This document shows, in pieces, positions 5,148 to 59,229 of a DNA stretch of 59,301 nucleotides. Within the stretch, counting starts at the first letter, position 1. Each line of letters opens with the position of its first letter. Both the position numbers and the translations under genes were made by a program. The notes beneath the pieces were generated by a model that had not been told where the DNA came from, searched no databases, and saw nothing but the letters and a program-made list of their open reading frames with translations. Source of the DNA: an uncultured Gammaproteobacteria bacterium (lineage in GTDB: Bacteria; Patescibacteriota; Microgenomatia; Woykebacterales; RBG-16-39-9b); contig CAYGGA010000004.1 of NCBI GenBank assembly GCA_964349395.1, forward strand, positions 1 to 59,301, in the 5' to 3' direction.

Positions 5148-6532
5148 TTTATTCTGGGGAAAAGAGGAATAGTGCTTTTGATCTCGGGTGCGGAATAAAT
5201 CTCAGTAATTTTCTCAGAAGTTTCTGGGAGAAACGGCTTGAGATTAAAAGCGATTTGCAGAATGCCATTTACTAAAATAGAGTAAATCTCTTCTTGATTG
5301 GTAGTTCCTTCCCAAGGTTTTTTATCTTGTAGATAGTTATCAAGTCTACTGATCTCTCTTTGGATTAAAGCCAAACCTTCATTAAATTCCAACTTCTCCA
5401 AATGACTAACCAACTCTGGATAGAATTCTACTTCCTCAATTTTTAAAAACTTAGTTTGAATATTATTGTTTTCACATAGCTTAGCCACTCTGGAGACAAG
5501 ATTGCCTAACCCATTGGCCAAATCAGAATTGTAGACTTCTTGTAGTCTATGGAAAGAAAAATCGCCATCATTACCAAAAGGAATCTCTTTTAAAAGATAA
5601 TACCTAAGTGTGTCATTACCATATTTGTTAGCTAGTTCCACAGGGTCAATGCTATTTCCCAATGATTTAGAAATTTTGACATTATCAATGGTAAAAAATC
5701 CATGGCCAAAGACTTTTTTAGGTAGCAGGTAACCTGCAGAGAGCAACATAGCTGGCCAAATCACGGTATGGAATCTCAAAATATCCTTGCCGACAATGTG
5801 TAAATCAGTTGGCCAGAACTCTTTTGGTGCTCCAGAAATATAATTGATCAAAGCATCAAACCAGACATAAATCACTTGACCACTATCATTGGGAGCAGGA
5901 ATTCCCCACCTGACACTTTCTCTGGTAATAGAGATATCCGTCAACCCACTTTTGACAAAATTCACAATCTCGTGCTTACGGTGCTCAGGTGAAATAAAAT
6001 CTGGATTGTCTTCAAAATATTTTAAAAGTTTTTCTTGATAGCCAGATAGTTTAAAAAAGTAATTCTCTTCTACAATCTTTTCTGGTTTAGTCTTGTGGTC
6101 TGGACAGAAACCATCTACTAGGTCTGACTCGGTCAAAAAAGCCTCATGACCAGTACAGTACAAGCCCTCGTACTTTCCTTTGTAGATATCACCGGACTGC
6201 AAAACTTTATTATAGAAATCAGTAACTACTTTTTTATGTTCTTCACTAGTAGTCCTTATAAAATTATCATTAGAAATATTTAGTTTTTTCCAGGTTTCTT
6301 GCCAGACTGCAGCCTGAGAATTGGCATAGTCTTCTACCGATTGGTTGGCTTTCTGCGCTGCTTGGACGGTTTTTTGAGAATTCTCATCAGTACCAGTGAG
6401 GAAAAAAGTTTTGCTGCCTTGTTGGCGGTGGAAACGAGCCAAGACATCGGCAGCAATAGTCGAGTACGCATGCCCAACATGCGGCTTGTCATTTATGTAA
6501 TATATAGGAGTTGTAACGTAGTATTTTTCCAT
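5144..6532 (-). CDS. metG: Methionine--tRNA ligase (short form, no C-terminal dimerisation domain)
   Basis: TTPIYY, HVGH (HIGH), YVWFDALINY, KISKSLGN (KMSKS). Confidence 0.96.
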   Translation of the reverse strand: MEKYYVTTPIYYINDKPHVGHAYSTIAADVLARFHRQQGSKTFFLTGTDENSQKTVQAAQKANQSVEDYANSQAAVWQETWKKLNISNDNFIRTTSEEHKKVVTDFYNKVLQSGDIYKGKYEGLYCTGHEAFLTESDLVDGFCPDHKTKPEKIVEENYFFKLSGYQEKLLKYFEDNPDFISPEHRKHEIVNFVKSGLTDISITRESVRWGIPAPNDSGQVIYVWFDALINYISGAPKEFWPTDLHIVGKDILRFHTVIWPAMLLSAGYLLPKKVFGHGFFTIDNVKISKSLGNSIDPVELANKYGNDTLRYYLLKEIPFGNDGDFSFHRLQEVYNSDLANGLGNLVSRVAKLCENNNIQTKFLKIEEVEFYPELVSHLEKLEFNEGLALIQREISRLDNYLQDKKPWEGTTNQEEIYSILVNGILQIAFNLKPFLPETSEKITEIYSAPEIKSTIPLFPRIN

Positions 6533-10312: not shown

Positions 10313-10413
10313 CGTGTAATTATGTTAGTGAAAGTCAGCTTCATTGGCAAGCGTTCAAACTGGTTGTTAGGATAATTGGCCTAAGAGCCTTTCAGCTGCA
10401 AGGGCTTATAGCC

Positions 10414-10442
10414 TTGACATAGGCTTGGAAATATGTTATACT
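10414..10442 (+). promoter_or_regulatory. Near-consensus sigma70 promoter
   Basis: TTGACA-17 nt-TATACT with extended -10 TG. Confidence 0.8.
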
Positions 10443-10470
10443 ATAGGACAGTAAATTTGGGAGGGCAACT

Positions 10471-10656
10471 GTGGCTGACTTTTCCATCCTGACAGGTCCT
10501 GTTATCCGGCGCAAATCCGTGGACACTGTCGCCATCGGCGGCCAGTTGAGGGTACAGGCAAGGACAACCCCGCCCCAGTCCTACATCGCCAACGACGGGA
10601 CCCTCTGCACCAGCCGATCAGAAATGATCGACTACAACAGGGACCTCGGCCGCTAG
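10471..10656 (+). CDS. Small orphan protein (61 aa)
   Basis: GGGAGG SD 6 nt before GTG; downstream of a strong promoter; C/G-ending codons. Confidence 0.6.
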   Translation: MADFSILTGPVIRRKSVDTVAIGGQLRVQARTTPPQSYIANDGTLCTSRSEMIDYNRDLGR

Positions 10657-10734
10657 TTCGACCTCAGCCAAGGAGAGACACTTTGAAGTAACTATTCTTG
10701 AGTCTTTGCTTTCTTAGGTTGGACTAAGAAAAGT

Positions 10735-10773
10735 GGAGGTGTTTATTTGCCTAAACAGCAACTAAACACCTCC
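10735..10773 (+). terminator. Hairpin GGAGGTGTTTA...TAAACACCTCC
   Basis: 11-bp perfect inverted repeat after the small ORF, preceded by a second hairpin TTTCTTAG/CTAAGAAA; no clear U-tract. Confidence 0.45.
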
Positions 10774-10788
10774 CGAATCTTTCAAATT

Positions 10789-10863
10789 AATCTTCAGCAA
10801 TCTGCTTGAAGGCTAGAAAAACTTGGTGAAAGCCAGGTCCTTTCAGGCAGATTCTTGGAGGTT
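10789..10863 (+). ncRNA. Candidate structured RNA or leader: long stem, asymmetric internal loop, GAAA-capped hairpin
   Basis: AATCTTCAG/TTGGAGGTT and AATCTGCTTGAAGG/CCTTTCAGGCAGATT stems enclose CTTGGT-GAAA-GCCAGG; several G-U pairs favour the + strand. Confidence 0.45.
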
Positions 10864-10908
10864 AAATCCTTTCAAGAACAACCAAATAAACCAATTGGAG
10901 GAGATCTC

Positions 10909-11157
10909 GTGTCCACAACATTCATGGCTGAAGTCGGACGGTTGGTAGAGCTCTTCGAGCAGTACCCGCCGGAGGACCCAACGCTGAGCATCGACCAGAG
11001 CGAGAAGTACATTGAGTACTTCACGCATCAACCGCCCTGTCCCGAGAACCAGTCTCCATGGCTGCGCCTCGAACGCCTGATCGCCCTCCGCAACAAGACA
11101 ACGAGCGGCGGCAACGAGCGGTACGAAGGCAACAACTGGTGGTATCCCGGCCGTTAA
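10909..11157 (+). CDS. Small orphan protein (82 aa)
   Basis: GGAGGAG SD before GTG at 10909; GC3-rich codons unlike host genes. Confidence 0.65.
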   Translation: MSTTFMAEVGRLVELFEQYPPEDPTLSIDQSEKYIEYFTHQPPCPENQSPWLRLERLIALRNKTTSGGNERYEGNNWWYPGR

Positions 11158-11179
11158 CCCGAGAAACCGTCTATACCCA

Positions 11180-11218
11180 GGGGAAGTCTGTTTGACAGCA
11201 ATGTTCAACAGCTTCCCC
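11180..11218 (+). terminator. Hairpin with GCAA tetraloop
   Basis: GGGGAAG-T-CTG...GCAA...CAG-CTTCCCC directly after the ORF. Confidence 0.5.
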
Positions 11219-11223
11219 GCTAC

Positions 11224-11252
11224 TTTACCTTTAGGAAACTATTCACTAAAAT
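11224..11252 (+). promoter_or_regulatory. Putative sigma70 promoter
   Basis: TTTACC-17 nt-TAAAAT upstream of the 62-aa ORF. Confidence 0.45.
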
Positions 11253-11305
11253 GTGGCTAGTTTCTTGAGGGCAAAGCTCTTAAGAGTTTACTAAAGGAGA
11301 AGAAC

Positions 11306-11494
11306 TTGACCAGAATCAAATCCTGGTTACAGCGGGTTGGGGAGTGGTTCAAACCGCCTGCAGACATGAAGAAGTGGCGGATCAGGACCGACCCTTTCCA
11401 TCCCTTCCATCGACTCATCCCAAAGGACCATGAGGAGCTGGAAAGCCTTCATGTGAAGCACCGCCCAGATACCTACCCACCCGAGAAGGAGTAG
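11306..11494 (+). CDS. Small orphan His/Pro-rich protein (62 aa)
   Basis: AAAGGAG SD before TTG; GC3-rich codons. Confidence 0.6.
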   Translation: MTRIKSWLQRVGEWFKPPADMKKWRIRTDPFHPFHRLIPKDHEELESLHVKHRPDTYPPEKE

Positions 11495-11505
11495 TTGTCA
11501 CCACC

Positions 11506-11542
11506 GGAGGTTTGTTTACAACCTAGTTGTAGATAGGCCTCC
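11506..11542. terminator. G-U-rich 17-bp hairpin between convergent genes
   Basis: GGAGGTTTGTTTACAAC-CTA-GTTGTAGATAGGCCTCC pairs fully when G-U is allowed on the + strand. Confidence 0.6.
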
Positions 11543-11552
11543 AAAATTTTGC

Positions 11553-16863: not shown

Positions 16864-16931
16864 TGTCATTGCGAACATAGTGAAGCAATCTCAAACAGGA
16901 TTGCCACGTCACTTCGTTCCTCGCAATGACA
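16864..16931. repeat. RPE-like palindromic repeat, family 1, copy 1
   Basis: TGTCATTGCGA...GCAATCTC...GATTGCCACG...CGCAATGACA. Confidence 0.85.
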
Positions 16932-27464: not shown

Positions 27465-27497
27465 AAAGAAAAAGCCCCAGAAGTTTTCCGAGGCCTT
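27464..27497 (-). terminator. Intrinsic terminator (GCCTC-core family, copy B)
   Basis: Minus strand AAGGCCTCGG-AAAACTT-CTGGGGCTT-TTTCTTTTT. Confidence 0.65.
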
Positions 27498-27528
27498 ATT
27501 GGTTGCAATTTGTGTCAGTAGGTTATCT

Positions 27529-27702
27529 CTACCTTGAGTGTCTACTGTTCTCCCAGCTCCTAGAACGTTTGGACAACCTGGCGTCAAATTTTGCCAGATT
27601 TTGGTCCCTCTTTCTCTGTCTCTCCGCCTCTCTTTCCCTACATTTCTTGCACGGACAACCTGGGGACGTTTCTTCGTTCCTATTGTAACCCCCGCCGACC
27701 AT
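27529..27702 (-). CDS. Small basic protein with CxCxxC motif (57 aa, below ORF-track cutoff)
   Basis: Hand-translated: MVGGGYNRNEETSPGCPCKKCREREAERQRKRDQNLAKFDARLSKRSRSWENSRHSR; GAGGTG SD; lies between two related terminators. Confidence 0.6.
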   Translation of the reverse strand: MVGGGYNRNEETSPGCPCKKCREREAERQRKRDQNLAKFDARLSKRSRSWENSRHSR

Positions 27703-27744
27703 ACTACACCTCTTTCCTTTGTAGTTAGATGTAATTATACACCC

Positions 27745-27777
27745 AAAGAAAAAGCCCCAGGTGTTTTTCTGAGGCTT
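27745..27777 (-). terminator. Intrinsic terminator (GCCTC-core family, copy C)
   Basis: Minus strand AAGCCTCAG-AAAAACAC-CTGGGGCTT-TTTCTTT; homologous to copy B. Confidence 0.65.
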
Positions 27778-27782
27778 AGGGT

Positions 27783-27992
27783 TTAGCTGAGGGTGATCGT
27801 CCAGACTCGCAGTCGCTCTTGAGCAATGCGGATAGGTACGCTATAAAGTTGGGCAAATTCCTTGAGCTGACGCTCCAACTCCTCTAAGGTTTTTGCCGAA
27901 CAATGACCAGCAGGTAGTAATCCCACCACATCCCCGCGGTAGTACCCTGCTTTGTTGGGATCAGGATAGACAAGGGCGGTGAAAGTTAGCAT
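27783..27992 (-). CDS. HicB-like antitoxin N-terminal domain protein, no HicA partner
   Basis: FTALVYPD...GYY...GLLPAGHCSAKTLEELERQLKE resembles the HicB RNase-H-like pattern; AGGAGAG SD. Confidence 0.55.
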   Translation of the reverse strand: MLTFTALVYPDPNKAGYYRGDVVGLLPAGHCSAKTLEELERQLKEFAQLYSVPIRIAQERLRVWTITLS

Positions 27993-28009
27993 CCTGCTCT
28001 CCTTCCTGA

Positions 28010-29793: not shown

Positions 29794-29867
29794 TGTCATT
29801 GCGAGCTTTAGCGAAGCAATCTCGACCTAAAGGGATTGCCACGGAACTAAAGTTCCGCGCAATGACA
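29794..29867. repeat. RPE-like palindromic repeat, family 1, copy 2
   Basis: TGTCATTGCGAGCTTTAGCGAAGCAATCTC...GATTGCCACG...CGCAATGACA. Confidence 0.85.
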
Positions 29868-31780: not shown

Positions 31781-31843
31781 ATGGCCACTAAGAGGGACTT
31801 AGTTCACGAAGTAGGCGCAGGATTTTTAAAATATGGATACTAA
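31781..31843 (+). pseudogene. Out-of-frame duplicate or remnant of the dnaJ 5' end (MATKRD...)
   Basis: ATG GCC ACT AAG AGG GAC..ACGAAGT parallels ATG GAT ACT AAA AAA TCC TAC TACGAAGT 52 nt downstream; 20-codon ORF. Confidence 0.5.
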
Positions 31844-32921
31844 AAAATCCTACTACGAAGTTTTAGGTGTCAGTAAGACAGCTTCCAGTGAGGATATTAA
31901 GAAAGCATATCGAAATCTTGCGCGCAAACACCACCCGGACGTCGATAAATCCCCTGACAGTGGCACCAAATTCAAAGAAATAAATGAAGCTTACCAAGTT
32001 TTATCGGACCCTCAGAAAAAAAGTGCCTATGACCAGTTTGGCCACAGTGCTTTTTCACCGGGTGGGGGACCTGGTCGCAGTTCGGGTAGTTATCAGACCT
32101 ACAATTGGGAGGATCTAGGAGGCTTTCGTGATCCTTTTGAGATTTTTGAAGAATTTTTTGGTGGCAGAGGTTTTGCAGGAAGTACCCGCACTTCTAGAAA
32201 TCGTGGCGAAGATTTACATTTTGAAATCACCTTACCTTTTTCCGAGGCTATTTTTGGGGTAGAAAAAAAAGTTACAGTTGATAAATATGTGGCCTGTACC
32301 AACTGCCTGGGTAGTGGTAAGACTAAAGATAGTGTCGAAAATACCTGTTCTCAGTGTAGTGGTCGTGGAGAAATAAGTGGTAGCACCCAAACTATTTTTG
32401 GTAATTTTGCCACTCGCCAAGTCTGCCCCACTTGCAATGGGGTTGGTAAAACGGTCAAAAATCCTTGTTCTAAATGTAGGGGTTCAGGACGAATAAAAGA
32501 CCGAGTCGAGATTACCTTGAAAATACCCGCTGGGGTAGATGATGGTCAGACGATCCGTTTTCCTACTCTTGGGAACATGGGTGGAAAAGGGGAAAGTGCT
32601 GGAGATTTGTATCTCCAAGTTCATGTTTTAGGTGATAAAAACTTTCAGCGCGACGGGAACAATATTTACTGCACTTTACCGATCAGTATGACCCAAGCTG
32701 CTATTGGCGACGTTATTTCCGTACCCACAGTGGATGGGGAAGTAAACCTAAAAATTCCCGCGGGGACTCAGCCTGAGACTGAGTTTAGACTCACTGGTCA
32801 TGGCGCCACTGTTCTGGGTACCAAGAACAGAGGTGACCAAATTGTTAAAGTGAAGGTTCAGATTCCATCCAAATTGAGTAGAAGACAACAAGAGATCCTT
32901 AAAGAATTTGAAGATAGTTAG
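31833..32921 (+). CDS. dnaJ: Chaperone DnaJ
   Basis: YYEVLG, HPD, four CxxCxGxG repeats. Confidence 0.97.
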
Positions 32922-32925
32922 CAAT

Positions 32926-33021
32926 TGTTATATTTCACGTTTTTTATAAAAATTAGCCTCAAAGTTTTCTGGATAAAAAATCTGAGGCTAAGAAAATTCA
33001 CTTTTTCAGTAAAATAGGACA
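32926..33021. repeat. About 96-bp palindromic element, copy 1 (MITE-like)
   Basis: TGTTATATTTCAC...TTAGCCTCA/TGAGGCTAA...GTAAAATAGGACA; direct repeat of 33474-33573. Confidence 0.8.
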
Positions 33022-33022
33022 C

Positions 33023-33124
33023 TTGTGTCTAGGTGTTGCGCTGGGGCTATCTCGGGTAGAAATGGACAACCTGCTGTACGCCGCCGACTACAAGCCCATC
33101 ACCCTGCCGCAGTCAGTGCGGTAG
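33023..33124 (+). pseudogene. 3' fragment of a probable XRE/HTH regulator gene
   Basis: Hand-translated LCLGVALGLSRVEMDNLLYAADYKPITLPQSVR*; GC3-rich; begins at the edge of the repeat; stop abuts that of the convergent ORF. Confidence 0.45.
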
Positions 33125-33382
33125 TCATCGGGTAGGCTGACTGGCCCGTCCTCCTCGCTTTTCTGCAGAGCCGCTGGTCTTCCATTGCCAAATTTGTCGT
33201 ACGACTAGCCAGATAAGAACCACAATCGACCAGGCACCCGATAATAGGAGAACCAAATACGCTGTAAGTCCTCCGGAATGTTCCTGCATGACGAGGAAGA
33301 AAAAGAGGCCAATAAGTGCTAGCCATATTCCGTAGATAATGGTGCTCACTATTCTTGAAAGAGACATAACTCTCATAAACAT
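33125..33382 (-). CDS. Small 2-TM orphan membrane protein (85 aa)
   Basis: Two hydrophobic helices with a basic C-tail; lies between the two repeats. Confidence 0.6.
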   Translation of the reverse strand: MFMRVMSLSRIVSTIIYGIWLALIGLFFFLVMQEHSGGLTAYLVLLLSGAWSIVVLIWLVVRQIWQWKTSGSAEKRGGRASQPTR

Positions 33383-33473
33383 ACAAGCGTCATAGTCAGC
33401 TTGTCAAATATCACCCATTTTAAGAAGGTCATTAGGCCCATTTTAGTGGAATCACAAATCAACGCAGTCAATG

Positions 33474-33573
33474 TGTCATATTTCACGTTTTTTATAAAAA
33501 ATTTAGCCTCAAAGTTTTCATTGCATGAAAAATCTGAGGCTAAAAAAATTCAGTTTTTCAGTGAGATATGACA
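33474..33573. repeat. 100-bp palindromic element, copy 2, with 13-bp terminal inverted repeats
   Basis: Ends TGTCATATTTCAC / GTGAGATATGACA (12 of 13 complementary); internal TAGCCTCA/TGAGGCTA stem. Confidence 0.8.
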
Positions 33574-33637
33574 GAGACAAAATTAAAACAAGCACCTGCA
33601 GGTTTAAAAACAGGGAAATTTAAAGGAGTTAAAGAGA

Positions 33638-33892
33638 TTAATTAGTTCTGAAGGCGCGGACCACTGCTAAGAGTATAACTGAGCCAAGCATAGCTACAAT
33701 CAATGAGTAGAGATTGAAGCCCACTGTACCTGGACCACCTAAAATTGTAATTACAAATCCACCGACCAAAGCACCCATTACTCCGACAATAATATCAAAG
33801 ATGGGTCCTTGCTCTTCATGCATAATCATAGACGCAATCCAACCAGCCATAGCACCAAAGACAATCCACATGACAAATTCCACCACTACCAC
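33638..33892 (-). CDS. GlsB/YeaQ/YmgE family (transglycosylase-associated) membrane protein
   Basis: WIVFGAMAGWIAS...DIIVGVMGALVGG...GSVILL; AGGAGGT SD. Confidence 0.9.
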   Translation of the reverse strand: MVVVEFVMWIVFGAMAGWIASMIMHEEQGPIFDIIVGVMGALVGGFVITILGGPGTVGFNLYSLIVAMLGSVILLAVVRAFRTN

Positions 33893-33999
33893 CTCCTAAC
33901 TAACAATCAGTAATATATATTATGTTACAGTAATAATATAATGCTACTTGGTTAGTTGTAAAGGACCAACCAAGCTAAACTTTGTGACTAGCTCACTAC

Positions 34000-34028
34000 T
34001 TGACCTTAGAGGCTCTTAGAGTTATACT
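34000..34028 (+). promoter_or_regulatory. Sigma70 promoter of the nusA-infB operon
   Basis: TTGACC-17 nt-TATACT. Confidence 0.75.
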
Positions 34029-34058
34029 CGCCTTACTAGTTAGATTACGACGATTTAG

Positions 34059-34081
34059 AAGTGGGTTTGCGCCCACTTTTT
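34059..34081 (+). promoter_or_regulatory. rimP-leader-like terminator hairpin
   Basis: AAGTGGG-TTTGCG-CCCACTT-TTT in the nusA leader; resembles the GUGGG/CCCAC leader known upstream of rimP-nusA-infB. Confidence 0.7.
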
Positions 34082-34092
34082 AAATATTAAAA

Positions 34093-34165
34093 GTAATAAG
34101 AGATAAGAGAAAAGCGATAAGAAGTGAATGAAATTTCTTTTCGCCTATTGCTTCTCGCTTATTGC
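34093..34165. repeat. Heptamer-repeat hairpin upstream of nusA
   Basis: TAATAAG-AGATAAG-AGAAAAG-CGATAAG followed by complementary TTTTCGC-CTATTGC-TTCTCGC-TTATTGC. Confidence 0.55.
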
Positions 34166-34180
34166 CAAAAGGAGTTATAC

Positions 34181-35452
34181 ATGGCCCTTAGAACTGAATT
34201 TGCAGCCGCACTAAATCAAGCCGCTTCCGAGCGGGGTATTGACGTGGAGGAGATTGTTTCCATCATGCAGGAAGCCATCAAGGCGGCTTACCGAAAGGAT
34301 TTTGGTGGGGAATTAGAGAATTTAGAAGTAACTCTAGATGATAGTAGTGGGGAAGCGAGAGTTTTTGAAGATGGCAAAGATGTCACCCCGGGTGGTTTTG
34401 GGAGAATTGCCGCCCAAACTGCCAAACAAGTGCTATTGCAAAGAATCAGGGAAGCAGAAAAAACCGCTATTTTGACAGAATTTGAAAAAAGAGTAGGTAC
34501 GATTATCAATGGTATGATCCAGAGGATTGAAGGACCAAATATTGTAGTCGACTTGGGTAAAACCGAAGGGCTGATGCCGCAAAGTGACCAATCTCAAGGT
34601 GAAAGCTATCGTTTAAATCAAAGACTCAAATTTTATATTGTTGGTATTAAGGAAGGCCCTCGGGGCCAAGACATCTTAGTCTCGCGCGCTCACAAAGGGT
34701 TAGTCGAAGGACTTTTCAAACTAGAAGTGCCGGAGATTGGTTCTGGCATCGTGGAAGTAAAAGCAGTAAGTCGGGAAGCGGGAGTGCGCTCCAAAGTAGC
34801 AGTTTCTTCGAAACAAGCTGGAGTGGATCCGGTGGGTAGTTGTGTAGGTCAAAAAGGGGTTCGGGTCCAAGCCGTGATTGCTGAACTTGGCAATGAAAAA
34901 ATTGATGTAATCCAGTACTCCGAAGAGACTTCTAAATTTATTTCGGCCGCTCTTTCTCCGGCCAAAGTGGACAACGTGAAGCTGGAAGAAGAGGGAAAAA
35001 CCGCCCATGTAGAAGTACCGGAAGATCAGCTCTCTTTAGCAATTGGAAAAGATGGACAGAATGTGCGCCTCGCGGCCAAACTCACTGGCTGGAGGATTGA
35101 CATCCAGGGTGCGAATGTCATTGCGAGCAATAGCGCGGCAATCTTAAAGCAGGAAGAGGAAGTTAAAGAGAAAAAAACTAAGAAGAGTGTGAAGGCTAAG
35201 AAAATCGATAAAGTAGAAAAAGAACCAAAAAAGAAGGTTGCTAAGAAAACAACTAAAACCAAAAAGAAAGATGAAGAGATCACCACGGCTTCGACTGACA
35301 GCCAGCCTCGTGATGACAAGGATACAAGTGAACCAAAAGATGAACAGGAAGAAAAAGTTGAAGCTGCTTTGGAGGCCCAAGAAGAAGAAAAAGCCTCCGG
35401 GGACACTGAGGAGCAGTTAAAAGTTATTGAGGATGGTCAGAAAAATGGCTAA
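34181..35452 (+). CDS. nusA: Transcription factor NusA with long Lys/Glu-rich C-tail
   Basis: FGRIAAQTAKQV, S1 and KH domains, REAGVRSKVAV, LAIGKDGQNVRLA; AAGGAG SD before ATG 34181. Confidence 0.96.
   Translation: MALRTEFAAALNQAASERGIDVEEIVSIMQEAIKAAYRKDFGGELENLEVTLDDSSGEARVFEDGKDVTPGGFGRIAAQTAKQVLLQRIREAEKTAILTEFEKRVGTIINGMIQRIEGPNIVVDLGKTEGLMPQSDQSQGESYRLNQRLKFYIVGIKEGPRGQDILVSRAHKGLVEGLFKLEVPEIGSGIVEVKAVSREAGVRSKVAVSSKQAGVDPVGSCVGQKGVRVQAVIAELGNEKIDVIQYSEETSKFISAALSPAKVDNVKLEEEGKTAHVEVPEDQLSLAIGKDGQNVRLAAKLTGWRIDIQGANVIASNSAAILKQEEEVKEKKTKKSVKAKKIDKVEKEPKKKVAKKTTKTKKKDEEITTASTDSQPRDDKDTSEPKDEQEEKVEAALEAQEEEKASGDTEEQLKVIEDGQKNG
35117..35317 (+). repeat. Family-1 RPE-like repeat split and embedded in frame in nusA
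   Basis: Left arm GTCATTGCGAGCAATAGCGCGGCAATCT (24 of 28 identical to the copy at 29795); right arm GAGATCACCACG...CTCGTGATGAC at 35276-35317. Confidence 0.75.
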
Positions 35453-43962: not shown

Positions 43963-44028
43963 TGTCATTGCGAACGAAGTGAAGCAATCTCAGATTGCCA
44001 CGTCGGCTTAAGCCTGCTCGCAATGACA
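43963..44028. repeat. RPE-like palindromic repeat, family 1, copy 3
   Basis: TGTCATTGCGAACGAAGTGAAGCAATCTC-AGATTGCCACG...CTCGCAATGACA. Confidence 0.85.
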
Positions 44029-59158: not shown

Positions 59159-59229
59159 TGTCATTGCGAACGAAGTGAAGCAATCTCAGAGATCGCCACG
59201 CCTTCGTTGCCCTCAGGCTCGCGAGGACA
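59159..59229. repeat. RPE-like palindromic repeat, family 1, copy 4
   Basis: TGTCATTGCGAACGAAGTGAAGCAATCTC-AGAGATCGCCACG...CTCGCGAGGACA. Confidence 0.8.

Follow-up and report, generated by a model that had tools for sequence, protein, structure and literature searches.

A pair of palindromic elements around apparently foreign DNA in the dnaJ–nusA spacer of a patescibacterium

How did a short piece of DNA whose composition is foreign to its host come to lie between two copies of the same palindrome? The question is raised by a metagenome-derived contig of 59,301 nucleotides (NCBI GenBank assembly GCA_964349395.1, contig CAYGGA010000004.1), which was searched at its full length and which we call the window. 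Downstream of its dnaJ gene, two ~100-bp palindromic elements in direct repeat (copies 1 and 2, Table 1) stand on either side of a short intervening segment. The locus is a variable spacer between two conserved operons, dnaK–dnaJ and nusA–infB, and in it a GC-rich gene stump abuts the end of a palindromic repeat. The uptake of foreign DNA by Patescibacteria is poorly understood, since their tiny genomes hold few recognisable mobile elements. An earlier note, made from the sequence of this stretch, had proposed that the foreign DNA was captured or moved by the two elements acting as a composite unit. The reading that we favour, and to which we would give an even chance, is that the locus holds a low-copy palindrome pair, similar to repetitive extragenic palindromes (REPs) or to miniature inverted-repeat transposable elements (MITEs), with a terminator-like stem, which surrounds decaying foreign DNA in a hot spot and was made by one local event.

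The two direct repeats are present downstream of dnaJ as the earlier note had described them, and they are about 90% identical: 12 of the 100 aligned columns differ, through 8 substitutions and two 2-nt indels. Their similarity begins at TGT(T/C)AT and stops at (G/T)GACA; beyond the left limit, only a shifted CAAT, just outside, is common to the two copies. The ~100-bp palindrome is a discrete unit: outside the inverted-repeat termini, give or take a base or two, the copies are no longer homologous. Copy 2 does possess the 13-bp terminal inverted repeats and the internal stem ascribed to it: its termini, TGTCATATTTCAC and GTGAGATATGACA, are complementary at 12 of 13 positions, and the 20-nt arms of its inner hairpin are complementary to 90%. 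Folded as single-stranded DNA, it reaches -22.4 kcal/mol, compared to -7.3 kcal/mol for shuffled sequences (z = -7.0), a value that none of 200 shuffles matches. Copy 1 is indeed a degenerate version, with termini that are complementary at 10 of 13 positions, as read from the sequence, and a fold of z = -2.8.

The divergence between the copies sits in the loop and in the outer termini. None of the 12 differing columns falls within the 33 columns of the inner stem (P = 0.008 if the differences were evenly spread), which suggests that there is a functional constraint on this stem. In both copies, a stable stem-loop is immediately followed by a U-run on the minus strand, as is looked for in a terminator, while on the plus strand the stem is followed by an A-run and not by a T-run. 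Since the two copies do not differ in their inner hairpin, which has a T-run after it on the minus strand, this hairpin looks like a Rho-independent terminator for that strand.

It may be that the elements are nothing else than that, namely purely regulatory 3'-end modules (terminators or RNA-stabilising hairpins), one of which was duplicated locally by replication slippage or unequal recombination, with filler trapped between the copies and no mobility involved. This is supported by the perfect conservation of the inner stem next to a diverged loop and diverged termini, by the position of the T-run after the stem on the strand of the upstream open reading frames (ORFs), and by the restriction of the element to this locus. 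However, a random duplication is not expected to end at both 13-bp inverted-repeat tips; since the repeated unit has the palindrome's own boundaries, a random segmental duplication is unlikely. Nor does a terminator need the outer inverted repeat and the TGTCAT terminus, which is common to another family of palindromes in the window, called family 1 hereafter. We therefore regard a purely regulatory origin as distinctly unlikely.

The DNA between the copies corresponds to its earlier description: some 450 bp that hold an 85-residue ORF with two putative transmembrane segments and a plus-strand fragment, rich in GC at third codon positions, which starts at the repeat edge, the two stop codons abutting. 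The idea that this DNA is foreign is borne out by its composition, by its codon-phase GC pattern and by a relative in a soil metagenome. Its GC content is 0.60-0.61 at 33050-33200, compared to an average of ~0.42 for the host genes. The plus-strand frame opens 2 nt past the end of copy 1 and has GC contents of 0.67, 0.39 and 0.73 at codon positions 1, 2 and 3, the value at position 3 being 0.8-0.9 over 33041-33145. In another study, an unrelated soil metagenome (run X6) yielded a 151-nt contig that matches positions 33038-33156 (~119 nt) with 93% identity; this segment therefore has relatives outside this organism and this habitat. Past 33156, the soil contig continues with similar sequence containing small indels, which would disturb the frame of the 85-residue ORF. 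The two listed differences to the soil contig are both non-synonymous in the plus-strand frame (N to D and A to V).

The earlier note had suggested comparing the plus-strand fragment to helix-turn-helix (HTH) proteins of the XRE type, and such an identity finds no support. The fragment has no Pfam or NCBIfam match at E <= 1, among PDB sequences it matches none of the XRE chains at E <= 10, and no candidate was returned among 5.8 billion proteins or by tblastn against plasmids; the stump consists of 33 residues, which is too short for a fair HTH test. The motif ALGLSxxE...LLxAA-Y does resemble the last helices of actinobacterial XRE regulators, which is a lead rather than a test.

The position of this stump could also be explained if a foreign island had existed beforehand, an active miniature element had entered it in two separate insertions or by a local hop, and later deletions had cut the island down to 452 bp. 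Indeed, the stump begins within two bases of the element terminus, as an insertion or an element-mediated adjacent deletion would leave it, and 12 nt before copy 2 lies what may be a third copy of the element, decayed to a half, which would point to more than one event here. The half-copy is tentative, with an alignment score of 30.5 that is reached by 3 of 300 shuffles; upstream of the 85-residue ORF there is a single promoter-like match, and the terminus of the half-copy, which reads TTGACA on the minus strand, is its -35-like hexamer. On the other side, the family has only two copies, and independent insertions 452 bp apart are improbable without a strong site preference; target duplications are lacking, and beyond copy 1, which abuts dnaJ, there is no trace of the truncated gene's 5' half, so that this history needs at least one more precise deletion. 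We consider it an unlikely course of events.

Regarding the 85-residue ORF, searches of 5.8 billion and of 1.84 billion proteins gave no homologue, the two matches of the exhaustive search being multi-stretch hydrophobic matches. Its host-codon score (-0.085) is lower than that of any of the 38 host genes (mean 0.274, minimum 0.000); an ORF as long as this one arises in 22% of shuffles of the intervening DNA, and its 3-base periodicity has z = 2.3 (p ~0.025), compared to z = 7.9 for the downstream glsB-like gene, which combines strong coding periodicity with host-like codon usage. The possibility that the ORF is a diverged glsB duplicate, which would make the locus a tandem of gene-plus-terminator modules, was rejected: the two do not align at E <= 100, and their compositions differ. 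The intervening DNA as a whole has no match in phages, plasmids or E. coli genomes. It is apparently a non-functional, decaying patchwork that was acquired elsewhere.

The glsB-like gene also bears on the proposal of an integron- or dif-like cassette array, in which glsB with copy 2, and the 85-residue ORF with copy 1, would have been inserted by a recombinase. The locus contains two imperfect palindromes of the size of attC sites, in the same orientation and each after a small ORF of the same strand; the length of the unit (~550 bp) is typical of a cassette, and the missing target duplications are expected of a site-specific insertion. Yet the attC cores RYYYAAC and GTTRRRY are absent from both strands, neither an integrase nor a Xer-like gene lies in the window, the sites are only two in number, the codon usage of glsB is host-like, and the site was found nowhere else. 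A cassette array is highly improbable in our opinion.

Is the arrangement real, and is it proper to this organism? Contigs from ENA and Logan, from several samples of one study, encode exactly the same DnaJ and GlsB proteins and are 100% identical to the window through copy 1, the intervening DNA and copy 2. Both junctions are crossed by contigs that were assembled independently in several runs, and in no fewer than three samples, of this study; likewise, when the Logan contigs of four runs were compared to positions 32300-34300, each junction was crossed. These independent contigs rule out an assembly chimera. Among named organisms, the best relatives of DnaJ come from Candidatus Woykebacteria (~55% identity), so that the host is a patescibacterium of the Woykebacteria neighbourhood.

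In Woykebacteria RBG_13_40_7b (L014), nusA–infB follows 185 bp after dnaJ and the spacer is empty, and in another relative (L013), a single 72-residue ORF lies between dnaJ and nusA. The three closest relatives (L008, L009 and L010, with DnaJ identities of 81%, 69% and 66%) each have a different minus-strand gene right after dnaJ, whose end lies, in L008 and L009, within a few bases of the dnaJ stop codon. The element is absent from these three loci, based on sensitive blastn and nhmmer searches. The fact that each of them carries a different gene there shows that the spacer turns over repeatedly, and since the spacers of the relatives are either empty or differently filled, the dnaJ–nusA spacer is a hot spot for lineage-specific DNA. 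Judged from this comparison, everything from 32922 to ~34000 (copy 1, the intervening DNA, copy 2 and the glsB-like gene) belongs to the variable content. The comparison of the locus with an empty site had been suggested as a check: the spacer is empty in RBG_13_40_7b and variable in the other relatives; no variant without the intervening DNA was seen among the contigs of the source population.

The composite unit of the earlier note would consist of two miniature elements, moved by a transposase that is encoded elsewhere and possibly shared with family 1, which carried the foreign segment in. Two similar elements do bracket DNA of foreign composition, copy 2 has good inverted-repeat termini, the terminal TGTCAT is common to the multi-copy family 1, and the unit sits in a variable spacer of which the relatives' versions lack it. 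Such a unit is expected in more than one context, and it was found at this locus only. No third full copy of the element was found in the window or in the relatives' loci by sensitive blastn and nhmmer, and comparing the contigs of the four source metagenome runs to the 100-nt element (at least 80% likeness) returned this locus only, plus one 36-nt chance piece. The large collections were scanned for the exact 22-base core of the inner stem, and IMG/VR also for a separate pattern of the termini: in 185,579 GTDB species genomes and in JGI metagenomes, whatever matched the core was an unrelated, terminator-like hairpin, and neither the core nor the termini pattern matched in IMG/VR. By these searches, the 648-bp unit as a whole does not recur in the window or the four source runs, nor among the GTDB representatives, in the JGI metagenomes or in IMG/VR.

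No target-site duplication is visible at either copy, the flanks being ...AGCAAT|element|CTTGTG and ...CAATG|element|GAGACA, nor is there any around the whole unit (32925/33574). The ORFs of the window include no transposase or integrase, and in particular no REP-associated tyrosine transposase (RAYT). The earlier note had already remarked on the lack of an enzyme and of a clear target duplication, and rightly so. The window contains no tRNA or tmRNA attachment site; Rfam gives nothing at the gathering score over the whole window and only sub-threshold chance matches over 32800-33700. The contigs of the source runs show neither alternative joints nor a variant devoid of the intervening DNA, and searches of the literature by sequence and by topic returned nothing about such elements in Patescibacteria, only general papers about REPs. 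As a side observation, the only nuclease-like extra among the window's ORFs is a LAGLIDADG-type ORF located 8 kb away, directly upstream of a lepA-like GTPase gene whose start it overlaps.

The composite unit is therefore not borne out: with no duplication at either copy or around the unit, with unit and element confined to this locus in the collections searched, with no transposase or integrase seen in 59 kb, with the termini of copy 1 decayed to 10 of 13 and with no population variant, we consider it quite improbable. Two of the three observations that the earlier note had listed as speaking against it were made, since the element was found nowhere else and no HTH homology was found for the fragment; the third was not, because the relatives do not share the same arrangement. 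The 648-bp unit now appears inert.

The favoured reading, a single local event, is drawn from the presence of only two copies, 452 bp apart, with foreign DNA abutting both termini and no target duplication. In this mechanism, a small DNA segment carrying one copy of the element, or joined to it, would recombine with a resident copy at the 3' end of dnaJ or glsB. The recombination could be homologous or site-specific, resembling a Campbell-type integration or the insertion of an IS26-type translocatable unit, and it would leave a direct repeat on each side of the segment, copy 1 decaying afterwards. A composite transposon, a local hop, a pure duplication of terminators and a cassette array are each, in our view, less probable than a single local event.

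Several points weigh against this favoured reading. We infer the event behind the direct repeat from its anatomy alone. The source data consist of contigs, in which no circular intermediate, donor locus, single-element allele or recombinase was seen; their depth is ~2-13x, so that rare variants are hidden. Scanning for an exact 22-base core would miss diverged relatives of the element. A simple consensus terminator scan called neither hairpin, because the stems carry two internal mismatches. Last, with two well-formed hydrophobic segments and a weak periodicity, the 85-residue ORF could be a real gene that was recently acquired.

Table 1. Coordinates of the features discussed; positions are those of the window, except for the spacer genes of the relatives, which are given in the relatives' own sequences.
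Feature	Position	Strand	Remarks
Copy 1 of the ~100-bp palindromic element	32926-33021 (96 nt)		degenerate; begins 4 nt past the dnaJ stop codon
Copy 2 of the palindromic element	33474-33573 (100 nt)		near-perfect palindrome: 13-bp terminal inverted repeats and inner hairpin
Inner hairpin, copy 1	32953-32991	-	-16.7 kcal/mol, then UUUUUAU; downstream of the 85-residue ORF; putative terminator
Inner hairpin, copy 2	33502-33544	-	-21.2 kcal/mol, then UUUUUUAU; downstream of glsB; putative terminator
DNA between the copies ("cargo")	33022-33473 (452 bp)		left part GC-rich, right 90 bp AT-rich
3' remnant of a gene from a GC-rich genome	33023-33124	+	codon-phase GC; frame cut at the terminus of copy 1
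85-residue ORF, two hydrophobic segments	33125-33382	-	without homologues; gene status doubtful
Possible third, degenerate left half-copy of the element	33402-33461	+	starts TGTCAAATATCAC; 12 nt before copy 2; tentative
dnaJ	31833-32921	+	conserved left anchor of the variable spacer
glsB-like gene (GlsB/YeaQ/YmgE, Pfam Transgly_assoc)	33638-33892	-	within the variable spacer; copy 2 lies 64 nt downstream of its stop
nusA	34124-35452	+	conserved right anchor; directly after dnaJ or after one small ORF in distant relatives
Spacer gene of L008	1165-1401	-	78-residue ORF
Spacer gene of L009	3008-3286	-	92-residue membrane ORF
Spacer gene of L010	3019-3693	-	224-residue hydrolase-like ORF; overlaps the dnaJ stop codon
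Family-1 palindromes (n = 4)	16864-16931, 29794-29867, 43963-44028, 59159-59229		66-74 bp
Free-standing LAGLIDADG-type homing-endonuclease-like ORF, 279 residues	24869-25708	+	Pfam LAGLIDADG_3, E = 2e-8

Family 1, whose members are dispersed along the window, consists of palindromes of the type TGTCATTGCGAGC ... GCTCGCAATGACA; its 13-bp termini follow the pattern TGTCATTGCGA(A/G)C ... ATGACA and enclose an inner GCAATC/GATTGC stem. The earlier note stated that the termini of family 1 and of the element under study are the same hexamers. This holds for three of the four family-1 copies, which have the ends TGTCAT...ATGACA, but not for the fourth, which ends in GGACA. Besides the terminal hexamer, the element and family 1 have in common the length of the inverted repeat (13 bp) and the layout with an outer and an inner stem, and their placement is similar: three of the four family-1 copies start 3-6 nt past the upstream stop codon, and copy 1 starts 4 nt past that of dnaJ. 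Their internal sequences are unrelated. Based on the hexamer, the terminus length, the two-stem layout and the placement, a kinship between the element and family 1 is plausible.

Palindromes of the family-1 type are also present in two GC-rich IMG/VR contigs (L015, 4291-4372, and L016, 3912-3996), so that family 1 is widespread and crosses very different genomes. We know of no name for these palindromes, and searching the literature with their sequences gave nothing. We also note that the left half of a family-1 palindrome (TGTCATTGCGAGCAATAGCGCGGCAATCT) is found in frame inside nusA, at 35116-35144, where it coincides with a 7-residue insertion (about NVIASNS) relative to the NusA of the Woykebacteria genome L014; the insertion sits at the start of the variable, Lys/Glu-rich C-terminal tail.

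A much broader hypothesis would be that the TGTCAT...ATGACA palindromes form a cross-phylum class of hairpins that a trans-acting enzyme would handle, with the present element as a second member, and that direct pairs of them capture foreign DNA, possibly from a GC-rich host or neighbour, as cassette-like units in the transposase-poor Patescibacteria. We hold this to be very unlikely.

Some other features of the window deserve mention. A GC-rich hairpin with a T-run, at 34060-34081, lies just upstream of the ribosome-binding site of nusA, and hairpins are found at the same place in L014 (~6238-6262) and L013 (~1808-1832); a conserved role in the leader of the nusA–infB operon, as a terminator or an attenuator, is possible. 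The 1.2 kb from 10313 to 11552 have a GC content of 0.49-0.54, compared to ~0.41, and no host-like gene; the only long ORF there (121 residues, 10843-11208, minus strand) has no Pfam match, and Rfam gives nothing for the region at E <= 0.1; this could be a further insert, foreign or non-coding. Past lepA, a gene-poor stretch at 27465-28009 (GC 0.50) contains two 34-nt direct repeats, at 27465 and 27745, that are 79% identical and read AAAGAAAAAGCCCCAG...GAGGC.TTA; this region has no Rfam match at E <= 0.1 either.

If it were true that pairs of palindromes mediate the capture of DNA, they would provide a simple, enzyme-light route of gene gain. The case presented here is a single locus without sign of activity, and its value is that of an annotated example and of a pointer to the much commoner family-1 palindromes.

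How does the element compare to known systems? In the way it would work, it comes closest to REPs and REPINs and to MITEs that bear a terminator. REPs and REPINs are extragenic, hairpin-forming palindromes that follow closely on coding regions, where the neighbouring genes are co-directional or convergent, without target duplication, and roles in termination and in mRNA stabilisation have been proposed for them; a REPIN is a ~100-nt hairpin made of two inverted ends and a spacer, while REPs are 20-40 bp long, occur in copy numbers from tens to hundreds, bear GTAG or CGTC as a tag at one end and go together with a RAYT, a Y1 HUH transposase (Bertels & Rainey 2011, PMC3116915; Di Nocera et al. 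2013, PMC3733652). The element is similar to them in that it is a non-coding, extragenic hairpin located just after genes and devoid of target duplication. It differs from REPs by its two copies and its TGTC start, by the absence of GTAG and CGTC from both strands of both copies, and by the absence of a RAYT in the window.

The Correia elements of Neisseria and the enterobacterial ERIC/IRU are MITEs that act as terminators or promoters; their copies are numerous and scattered, and each family duplicates a defined target (TA for Correia). The element resembles them by its size (100-150 bp), its strong hairpin, its intergenic location and its possible effects on transcript ends, and its terminal inverted repeats, complementary at 12 of 13 positions in copy 2 and at 10 of 13 in copy 1, are those expected of a MITE. 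Unlike these MITEs, it has no dispersed copies, in the window or in the four source runs, and no target duplication.

The locus is reminiscent of the pseudo-compound transposons of the IS26 type in that direct copies bracket a passenger, with no outer duplication and with a truncated gene at the element end, an anatomy to be expected when a circle made of one element and the adjacent DNA joins a resident copy. The difference is that IS26 measures 820 bp and codes for a transposase of its own, while the flanks are here 100-bp non-coding palindromes, and that no enzyme or circle was seen. A genuine composite transposon is expected in more than one context, with a duplication around the whole unit; the present unit was found only at this locus and has no duplication around it.

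The attC sites of integrons, including those of CALINs (clusters without an integrase, of at least two sites in one orientation within 4 kb), are imperfect palindromes of ~60-140 bp in the same orientation, each located after a small ORF that often has no homologue, with a spacing of ~0.5 kb. The pair of elements is similar, since the two palindromes have the same orientation and start 548 bp apart, but neither copy contains R'' (RYYYAAC) or R' (GTTRRRY) on either strand, and the window has no integrase. Because the element departs from REPs, MITEs, composite transposons and attC sites in the traits that define them, we file it as a low-copy palindromic extragenic repeat that belongs to no named family.

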